NCBI GenBank assembly: GCA_964478455.1 | Contig: CAYZJD010000003.1 | Coordinates: 1-37,247, forward strand | Direction of reading: 5' to 3' | DNA: 37,247 nt | From: an uncultured Solibacteraceae bacterium | GTDB taxonomy: Bacteria > Acidobacteriota > Terriglobia > Bryobacterales > Bryobacteraceae | In this document: piece after piece, positions 4,532 through 5,125 of the stretch | How positions within the stretch are numbered: the first letter of the stretch is position 1 | Layout of the letters: each line of letters opens with the position of its first letter | Program-made: the position numbers and the translations under genes | Notes under the pieces: model-generated | Seen by the model: only the letters and a program-made list of their open reading frames with translations | The model's database searches: none | Told to the model about the DNA's origin: nothing

Positions 4532-5125
4532 TTACGAAGAAAGATAGATGAACAGCAGTAAGAGCGCCGCAAAACCGATCGCGGCCAGGAACCATTCCAT
4601 TCCCGTGAAGCTACCCAGAAACTCTGTAACTGGCGCCAGGGGAGACTTCCGCGCCGGCGCCTCCGGCGCCGGAGCCGCTTCAATTACTTCTGCCGGCGCT
4701 GCCTGGCGCGCCGCCGCCGGCGCGCCGACGATCTCCGTCGCCGCGCCACCGGCGCCCGCAAGCTGCAACCGCATCTCATAACCCGGCACCTCAAGAGTGT
4801 CGCCGGGCTGGACACGACGCTTCTCCCCCCGCGTGAGCCGCCCGCCGTTCACCCAGCTTCCATTACTGCTTTGATCAATGGCGTAAAGATCGCTTCCCTC
4901 CAACTGAAGCACAAGGTGCTCCCGTGACAGCGACGAGCCCTCGAGCGGCACTGCGCTGTCGGGGCCTCGCCCGAGCACCAGCTTCCCATCCACGCGGCAA
5001 CGGTGTTCCTTCACCGCGCCGTCCGCTTTGGACCGGACCGATAGAAGAATCTCCACCGCTACTTCAACATCCTTTCCAGGCACCGCTCCAATTGCCGGCG
5101 AATCATGGGGTCGCCTCCCATCCAA
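4532..5125 (-). CDS. FHA-domain protein with extreme C-terminal transmembrane anchor (possible minimal SctD-like component)
   Basis: FHA signature LVLGRGPDSAVPLEGSSLSREHLVLQLEGSDLYAIDQSSNGSWVNGGRL...GDTLEVPGYEMRL, followed by an Ala/Pro-rich linker. The protein ends in the hydrophobic helix WFLAAIGFAALLLLFIYLSS. The annotated ATG overlaps the upstream ORF by 67 nt. An in-frame GTG at 5054-5056, 2 nt after that ORF's stop, is an alternative start. Confidence 0.7.
   Translation of the reverse strand: MDGRRPHDSPAIGAVPGKDVEVAVEILLSVRSKADGAVKEHRCRVDGKLVLGRGPDSAVPLEGSSLSREHLVLQLEGSDLYAIDQSSNGSWVNGGRLTRGEKRRVQPGDTLEVPGYEMRLQLAGAGGAATEIVGAPAAARQAAPAEVIEAAPAPEAPARKSPLAPVTEFLGSFTGMEWFLAAIGFAALLLLFIYLSS

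Follow-up and report, generated by a model that had tools for sequence, protein, structure and literature searches.

The window analysed here, a stretch of 37,247 nucleotides from an uncultured Solibacteraceae bacterium (contig CAYZJD010000003.1), carries the genes of a non-flagellar type III secretion system (T3SS), together with a small gene for a tail-anchored FHA protein, hereafter FHA-TM. This protein looks like a reader of kinase signals held at the secretion machine rather than a cut-down form of the ring protein SctD, the latter being the possibility raised in an original prediction made from the letters of the window. The window is the entire 37-kb contig of a metagenome-assembled genome that is 82% complete.

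Architecture of the FHA-TM protein

The open reading frame (ORF) reported in the original prediction at 4532-5125, for which no strand had been named, was found to be a real frame on the minus strand, but its product most likely comprises 174 residues (MEILLSVRSK...) and not the 197 first proposed. This length was assigned because all orthologues begin at the equivalent of the GTG codon at 5056 (M-E/D-I/L-x-L-S/T-I/V...), 2-6 nt past the stop codon of the upstream gene to which this start is coupled. The TTG codon at 5125, from which 197 residues would be read, was rejected as a start, since it entails an overlap of 67 nt with the upstream gene.

An FHA domain, an Ala/Pro-rich linker and a hydrophobic C-terminal helix ending ...FAALLLLFIYLSS-stop had been described for this protein, and each was recovered in the shorter product, the first as a match to Pfam PF00498 (E=1.6e-13, 51.3 bits) and the others from the translation and a scan for transmembrane (TM) segments (Table 1). 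In an AlphaFold2 model built on 15 orthologues (mean pLDDT 80), residues 1-99 formed a beta-sandwich with pLDDT >90, residues 103-138 were disordered, and a short helix at 141-148 was followed by a confident helix at 152-173, the helices having pLDDT values of 92-98. The linker varied in length as well as in sequence, P134 being the sole residue invariant there in the orthologue alignment, and the T/S-x-x-E/D sequence that follows the juxtamembrane motif resembles a helix N-cap. Hydropathy on the Kyte-Doolittle scale was 2.32 over residues 156-174, and within the TM helix Y171 was invariant and L167 almost invariant. Ahead of this helix stand two basic residues, R136 and K137, which fits an N-in orientation with the FHA domain presumably in the cytoplasm. 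The protein stops one residue past the TM helix, as do 15 of 15 aligned orthologues, in full agreement with the earlier statement that it has no periplasmic part.

Conservation of the short form and linkage to the T3SS

The 15 orthologues, which share 34-49% identity, retain 19 invariant columns, well beyond what a chance ORF would show. A profile made from them was searched against 1.84 billion representative proteins and the best 150 of 62,254 matches were examined. Proteins of 260 residues or fewer accounted for 79 of these, and about 65 of them, as clusters defined at 50% identity, covered the whole profile and were nearly all 145-185 residues long. In 63 of the 79 short proteins, a simple hydropathy scan placed a TM segment no more than 8 residues from the end, and the juxtamembrane motif S-F-T-x-x-E-K-F was common to all 63. 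The longer matches were multi-FHA proteins that scored through repeated FHA domains, and none of the best 150 matches ran on C-terminally beyond a complete match to the profile. Since about 65 clusters share the short form and none among these matches is extended, the FHA-TM gene is neither a recent truncation nor an assembly artefact, and the question raised at the outset, whether homologous clusters encode the same short form, can be answered in the affirmative.

Gene order was compared in about 30 related loci from four sources, namely exact-protein look-ups, 201 family genomes, loci fetched by means of SctV, and the contexts of four divergent FHA-TM family members chosen from the profile search. 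All named relatives belong to the Acidobacteriota (Bryobacteraceae, Solibacteraceae and Terriglobia). In the T3SS loci so compared, SctV was followed by a protein of about 90 residues, a Gly-rich protein of about 115, a TPR protein of about 132, a protein of about 120 and FHA-TM. The FHA-TM gene was the last of this block in L040-L050 (11 loci), L006 and L009 and in at least ten family genomes, and held the same place in four of the four divergent contexts.

The strictness of this linkage was also evident from the distribution of the gene among the 201 family genomes. Thus, a tail-anchored FHA gene was present in 12 of the 13 genomes that were positive for SctJ, the exception being G004, an assembly of 610 contigs. 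The 188 SctJ-negative genomes yielded a single match of the family type, a divergent tail-anchored homologue in G009 that lies head to head with a kinase gene; G094, also SctJ-negative, contained just a generic FHA protein of 334 residues. The genes for SctJ and FHA-TM shared a contig in 5 of the 12 genomes, these being all in which both were single-contig. Synteny in every related locus examined, together with the ratio of 12/13 to 1/188 genomes, upholds the assignment of this protein to the T3SS, and the FHA-TM gene is on these grounds a dedicated T3SS gene.

A different affiliation, in which FHA-TM is the first gene and a signalling component of a downstream protease-type module that abuts the T3SS, was considered and is highly improbable. 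This module comprises three DUF4384 paralogues and a caspase-TPR protein, and begins after a gap of 42 nt in which no terminator-like site was seen; the same arrangement occurs in L006, L009, L040, L041 and L050. The module is missing, however, from G145, G050, G172, G184, G194 and G123, and likewise from L042-L049, L065-L069, L082 and L083, and in these the FHA gene still lies behind sctV, so that membership of the module was ruled out by synteny. Apart from the window and the five loci that share its arrangement, the FHA gene is followed by a Ser/Thr kinase gene or by unrelated genes. The module itself (1-4489 in the window, 15130-17327 in L009) is a variable add-on of some T3SS loci, and in L009 it extends into genes for a CsgG-like lipoprotein and for another protein with a caspase domain. 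Nothing relevant to DUF4384 function was found in the literature searched.

Affinity of the FHA domain

The original prediction raised the possibility that the protein is an SctD reduced to its cytoplasmic domain. Topology (an N-terminal FHA domain and one TM helix) and location in a T3SS locus agree with that proposal, but affinity in sequence and fold does not, for the FHA domain grouped with generic signalling FHA domains, an outcome named beforehand as one that would count against it. Thus, PF00498 outscored PF16697 (Yop-YscD_cpl) in 15 of 15 orthologues. The score of the window protein with PF16697 was 28.5 bits, below the gathering score of 33.2, and this model also exceeded its cut-off in five control genomes devoid of a T3SS; the corresponding score with TIGR02500 was 11.3 bits against a cut-off of 86. 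Searches of the PDB with phmmer and with the profile retrieved ArnA, FhaA, GarA/OdhI, Rad53 (FHA1), DgcB and EmbR, whose FHA domains bind phosphopeptides, and similar proteins, and no SctD protein even at E<=10. The top 50 matches from Foldseek were canonical FHA domains, among which the FHA domain of Chlamydia CT664/CdsD, at rank 41, was the sole SctD relative, and the best NCBIfam match, at a sub-threshold 39.9 bits, was TagH, an FHA protein associated with secretion systems of type VI (T6SS). These comparisons with SctD were made through curated models, the PDB and Foldseek.

The phosphothreonine pocket, with residues defined as in an earlier study (bioRxiv 10.1101/2020.09.22.308627), is formed in FHA-TM by G29 R30, S44 R45 x H47 and S63 x N65 G66 x W68 x N70. 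Of these residues, G29-R30 (R30 in the beta3-beta4 loop), S44-R45-x-H47 (S44 in the beta4-beta5 loop) and N65-G66 were invariant in the 15 orthologues, and the pocket is thus intact and conserved. According to published work, none of the solved cytoplasmic domains of classical SctD proteins carries the phosphothreonine motif, and these domains function without phosphothreonine (bioRxiv 10.1101/2020.09.22.308627; PMC3635987). In topology and placement FHA-TM is SctD-like, but by these comparisons it falls outside the SctD family and is not established as an SctD of any kind, reduced forms included.

Search for SctD and a T3SS secretin

Neither the curated model of SctD (TIGR02500) nor that of its periplasmic domain (PF16693) gave a match above cut-off in the genome to which the window belongs, in four relatives that are 86-100% complete, or in 401 genomes sampled across the phylum. 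No full-length SctD was therefore detected, in support of the original prediction. Weaker matches were examined and set aside. Thus, a protein matched by both models in G145 (contig C14) was a BON/OsmY-like lipoprotein of 182 residues, another weak match in that genome (C37) was unrelated, and the sub-threshold matches elsewhere in the phylum (G532, G465, G339 and G364) were generic FHA proteins from loci without T3SS genes. In the T3SS locus of the window, no protein other than the receptor kinase combined a cytoplasmic domain and a single TM helix with a large outer domain. Absence of SctD from this lineage is considered likely rather than proven because the periplasmic domains of SctD evolve fast and the genome is incomplete.

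The reported lack of a secretin at the locus was confirmed by Pfam scans of the window, and no secretin of the T3SS type was found in the genome. The genome does encode two secretins. One, of the Tad/RcpA type, has RcpC and a TadZ-like gene as neighbours, and the other is an orphan beside an SIS-domain gene. The former, a Tad/Flp-type secretin with pilus N-terminal, BON and Secretin domains, is encoded on contig C359 of this genome (G000; L004, 1378-3487), where it adjoins genes for RcpC/CpaB and a TadZ-like ATPase. A Tad-like system of Myxococcus xanthus (Kil) works together with a secretin-less T3SS, designated T3SS* (PMC12075869).

These results bear on a purely structural explanation, by which FHA-TM is a remnant of SctD or a proto-SctD. 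According to this explanation, which we regard as unlikely although less so than the remaining alternatives, a cytoplasmic ring of FHA domains, with its TM helices packed on those of SctJ, would dock the sorting platform without phosphorylation, and SctJ alone would build the periplasmic ring. The order of parts is that of the N-terminal third of SctD and the locus is that of a T3SS, yet no SctD-specific sequence signal was obtained. The pThr (phosphothreonine) pocket is invariant in FHA-TM, as opposed to missing in all solved classical SctD domains (bioRxiv 10.1101/2020.09.22.308627), although the FHA domain of Chlamydia CdsD, the SctD orthologue found by Foldseek, is fairly canonical (PMC3635987). 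A scan of the locus for TM segments, like the searches with TIGR02500 and PF16693, revealed no other candidate for SctD, a periplasmic domain of SctD would find no T3SS secretin as its partner, and a secretin-less 'short' T3SS locus without SctD is already known from Myxococcales (PMC3459982). Conservation of Y171 and L167 in the TM helix also speaks for this explanation. On the other side, the FHA-TM gene stands at the tail of the locus behind substrate and chaperone genes and not beside sctJ, and no C-terminally extended intermediate occurred among the best 150 profile matches.

FHA-TM as a proposed phosphothreonine reader

The explanation preferred here, in which our confidence is about evenly balanced, is that FHA-TM is a tail-anchored phosphothreonine reader dedicated to the T3SS, which recruits or releases a part of the secretion system under the control of a kinase of the locus. 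The single C-terminal helix would fix the protein in the inner membrane and the FHA domain would be held in the cytoplasm, near the export apparatus, on a flexible tether of about 40 residues. Phosphothreonine would be written by a Hanks-type Ser/Thr kinase, either the receptor kinase that heads the locus or another of the type often encoded downstream of the FHA gene, and would be bound by the FHA domain. This binding would recruit or release a cytoplasmic part of the T3SS, candidates being the SctQ platform, the tail of SctJ, the protein in the position of SctK and unk120, the 120-residue product of the adjoining upstream gene, and assembly or firing of the secretin-less machine would follow an outside signal. 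The fold, the conserved and intact pocket, the tail anchor, the strict linkage to the T3SS locus and the lack of a detectable SctD or T3SS secretin are established by the results above, whereas the orientation in the membrane, writing by the kinase, the nature of the ligand and any effect on secretion are inferred.

Ser/Thr kinase genes were noted at one or both ends of many related loci. Thus, the receptor kinase of the window is encoded near the sigma factor and the T3SS genes, in G145 and G050 the locus is flanked by genes for homologues of it, and in L042, L047, L048, G194, G123 and L065-L067 another kinase gene comes immediately downstream of that for FHA-TM, the kinase of L065-L067 having 1310 residues. 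A second FHA domain of the locus is found at the N-terminus of SctQ, where the Ser and Asn positions of the pocket have been lost in most orthologues; the pocket of SctQ being degenerate, FHA-TM would be the only intact reader in the locus. Fusions of FHA to SctQ were found in 23 cases, with sources that name Acidobacteria.

Several observations weigh against a role in reading phosphothreonine. No invariant Thr was seen in the cytoplasmic tail of SctJ, in a comparison for which ORFs were picked crudely and the picking failed for 4 of 11 sequences, and none was seen among orthologues of unk120, the N-terminus included. Proximity of kinase genes may be due in part to chance, Ser/Thr kinases being numerous in these genomes, and no PP2C phosphatase domain was found in any large ORF of the window. 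An intact pocket is, moreover, no proof of its use. The organism is known solely as a metagenome-assembled genome, and the case is built on sequence and models.

A variant of the phosphothreonine-reader explanation is centred on unk120, which FHA-TM might anchor or regulate, for example by keeping a secreted or regulatory protein, perhaps one that partners the FliA-like sigma factor, at the membrane until it is set free by a kinase signal or by the T3SS. The stop codon of unk120 and the start of the FHA gene are 2-6 nt apart in all orthologues, and the two genes adjoin in all loci but one (L049), which has the FHA gene and no detectable unk120. The N-terminus of the protein is conserved (M-x-I-K-x-x-P-G), one half is disordered, and the chain closes with a helical bundle that ends ...DP..R.Q.E.YL.KVLK (AlphaFold2 model, pLDDT 69); a half-disordered protein with a conserved N-terminus is often seen among exported T3SS substrates. 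Beyond T3SS loci, P0006 (L007, 923-1537), a tail-anchored homologue encoded beside a kinase, carries an unk120-like N-terminus (MRIKPPG...) fused directly before its FHA domain. Because of this fusion and of the translational coupling, unk120 is a prime candidate for a partner of FHA-TM. A regulatory role of the kind described would also be in keeping with the FliA-type sigma factor of the locus, but unk120 had no similarity to FlgM or to any known family or fold (no Pfam match at E<=1, no PDB profile match below E=0.07 and no fold match below E=4), and its lack of an invariant Thr counts here too. On balance we doubt that unk120 is the main object of FHA-TM, and rate this variant below the structural explanation.

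We are equally doubtful that FHA-TM is a functional, perhaps ancestral, counterpart of the cytoplasmic face of SctD in which docking is phospho-gated. Copies of the protein would in that case gather round the SctJ ring by way of their TM helices, and FHA-bearing SctQ pods would be docked only after the receptor kinase had written phosphothreonine, which would place injectisome assembly under phosphorylation control. Classical SctD would have been derived from such a protein by gain of periplasmic ring domains and loss of the pocket. Traits of an early type that can be cited for this T3SS are FliO, a FliA-like sigma factor, a FliK-like ruler and the lack of a secretin.

Comparison with known systems

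SctD forms a 24-mer ring that binds SctK and SctQ, and its periplasmic ring-building motifs surround SctJ and contact the secretin. Like SctD (YscD/PrgH/MxiG/PscD/CdsD), FHA-TM has an N-terminal FHA fold, predicted to be cytoplasmic, followed by one TM helix, is encoded in a non-flagellar T3SS locus and plausibly faces the SctQ/SctK platform. Unlike SctD, it has no periplasmic ring-building part of roughly 200-300 residues, and it differs from the solved classical proteins in retaining the Arg/Ser/His/Asn pocket and in the position of its gene.

Control by threonine phosphorylation is familiar from the T6SS, in which the kinase PpkA, the phosphatase PppA and the FHA protein Fha1/TagH take part and in which, in Agrobacterium, Fha binds phosphorylated TssL. 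As in that pathway, an FHA protein and a receptor-type Hanks kinase are encoded in the secretion locus, and TagH, as noted, was the best NCBIfam match; a course from outside signal to assembly of the machine is proposed here by analogy. The differences are that another secretion system is concerned, that Fha1/TagH is larger, soluble and without a tail anchor, and that the window has no PP2C gene.

Closest to FHA-TM in sequence and fold were mycobacterial FhaA and FhaB/FipA and the FHA domain of Bdellovibrio DgcB. Like FHA-TM, FhaB/FipA is a small FHA protein that crosses the membrane once; it links a kinase to the divisome, its TM helix being N-terminal and its FHA domain C-terminal. The order in FHA-TM is the opposite, and neither the mycobacterial proteins nor DgcB are known to be linked to a T3SS. 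The mechanism proposed here nevertheless shares the logic of FhaA/FhaB.

In being non-flagellar and without a secretin, the present T3SS resembles those of Myxococcales ('Myxo' loci and the needleless T3SS* of M. xanthus), of which the short locus also lacks SctD (PMC3459982) and the long locus or T3SS* has it (PMC10433427). In M. xanthus, T3SS* cooperates with a Tad-like system in which FHA proteins abound (PMC10433427), and the genome to which the window belongs likewise has a Tad-type secretin. Unlike the system described here, no tail-anchored FHA protein has been reported for the T3SS of Myxococcales in the literature searched.

Significance

FHA domains in secretion systems and the FHA fold in SctD are already known. 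A conserved, tail-anchored FHA protein with an intact pocket as a fixed T3SS gene was not described in the literature searched, nor was its occurrence in a lineage of Acidobacteriota without SctD or a secretin, and no relevant paper on an acidobacterial T3SS was found there. To our knowledge, the inner ring of all structurally studied injectisomes consists of SctJ and SctD, with the sorting platform coupled through a phospho-blind FHA-like domain. The soil-bacterial lineage described here appears to do without SctD and secretin and to keep, together with a receptor kinase and an SctQ that bears FHA, a minimal membrane-tethered FHA protein whose phosphothreonine pocket is intact. If FHA-TM reads phosphothreonine as proposed, this would be the first T3SS in which Ser/Thr phosphorylation gates assembly or firing, in the fashion of the T6SS, and would offer a concrete and testable picture for the origin of the odd FHA domain of SctD. 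In a survey of 2012, non-flagellar T3SS were noted only in Chlamydiae, Proteobacteria and Verrucomicrobia (PMC3459982), to which Acidobacteriota can now be added.

Gene content of the T3SS locus

Nearly all genes of the window are on the minus strand. From high to low coordinates, Pfam and NCBIfam scans indicated a receptor Ser/Thr kinase, a FliA-like sigma factor and an SctI-like protein, followed by SctJ, the ORF in the position of SctK, SctL, SctN, SctO and an SctP/FliK-like ruler. Next come SctQ with its N-terminal FHA domain, a FliO-like protein, SctR, (SctS), SctT, an unknown protein of 280 residues and SctU. Beyond SctU there are several pairs of Gly-rich and TPR proteins, then SctV and five small genes of which that for FHA-TM is the last, and the three DUF4384 paralogues and the caspase-TPR protein occupy the low-coordinate end. 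The cut-offs of curated models for non-flagellar (Sct) proteins were passed by SctV, SctJ, SctN, SctR and SctL, and the cytoplasmic tail of SctJ was also seen in orthologues. A sigma-28-like promoter was not found before the tail block, the sole match in the scan being a site at 22636-22662.

Table 1. Features of the FHA-TM gene and of the surrounding T3SS locus in the window
Feature	Position	Strand	Evidence
Tail-anchored FHA protein gene (FHA-TM), most likely 174 aa, from GTG at 5056 to the stop codon at 4532-4534	4532-5056	minus	Translation; orthologue starts
FHA domain, residues 1-99	4760-5056	minus	PF00498; AlphaFold2; invariant columns; Foldseek and PDB matches
Ala/Pro-rich disordered linker, residues 100-140	4637-4759	minus	pLDDT <50 over 103-138; alignment
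Juxtamembrane amphipathic helix and motif P-V-x-x-F-x-G-S-F-T, residues 141-151	4604-4636	minus	Model helix 141-148; motif seen in about 65 clusters
C-terminal TM helix, residues 152-173, and one further residue	4535-4603	minus	Kyte-Doolittle 2.32; helix pLDDT 92-98
unk120, 120 aa, stop codon 2 nt before FHA gene start	5059-5421	minus	Conserved neighbour
TPR chaperone-like protein	5437-5835	minus	Pfam TPR matches; weak HrpB1_HrpK match
Gly-rich protein, 115 aa, needle-like C-terminal helix	5920-6267	minus	Conserved tail block
unk95	6317-6604	minus	Conserved tail block
SctV, export gate, anchors conserved block	6747-8912	minus	PF00771, 776 bits; TIGR01399, 781 bits, above cut-off
SctQ with own N-terminal FHA domain, degenerate pocket (Ser and Asn positions lost)	16124-17689	minus	Pfam FHA and FliMN_C; orthologue sequences
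ORF of 101 aa in SctK position	20784-21089	minus	
SctJ lipoprotein, C-terminal TM helix and cytoplasmic tail of about 37 aa	21086-21952	minus	TIGR02544, 166.5 bits, above cut-off; TM scan
FliA-like sigma factor	22636-23358	minus	Pfam, NCBIfam
Receptor Ser/Thr kinase, one TM helix, outer FGE-sulfatase domain	23494-26019	minus	Pfam, NCBIfam

The Gly-rich protein of the tail block is one of three, the others being proteins of 155 (8950-9417) and 223 residues (10025-10696), also on the minus strand. None gave a Pfam or NCBIfam match. Each ends in a helix with a C-terminus like that of needle subunits (...SSIRNIR, ...MSHIRP and ...AISAIR) and each gene is paired with one for a TPR chaperone-like protein, those of the second and third pairs being at 9506-10006 and 10785-11378. 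The Gly-rich proteins resemble exported subunits of an axial structure or filament, each accompanied by its chaperone, although the system lacks a secretin.

The T3SS was split in some relatives. In G172 (contig C4), SctJ is encoded about 29 kb from the SctV/FHA-TM block and on the opposite strand, and in G125 the two halves are on separate contigs (C2 and C13). The soluble 280-residue protein encoded between sctU and sctT (12780-13622, minus strand) had a weak LysM/SafA-like match at its N-terminus (28.7 bits) and may be a peptidoglycan-binding accessory protein; it is kept in L009, G050, G172 and L049 and missing from G145, L042, L047 and L048. Outside the T3SS region, an ORF of 274 residues (29910-30734, minus strand) has as its C-terminal part a HepT-like ribonuclease domain (82.8 bits) and is possibly the toxin of a HepT/MntA-type pair.

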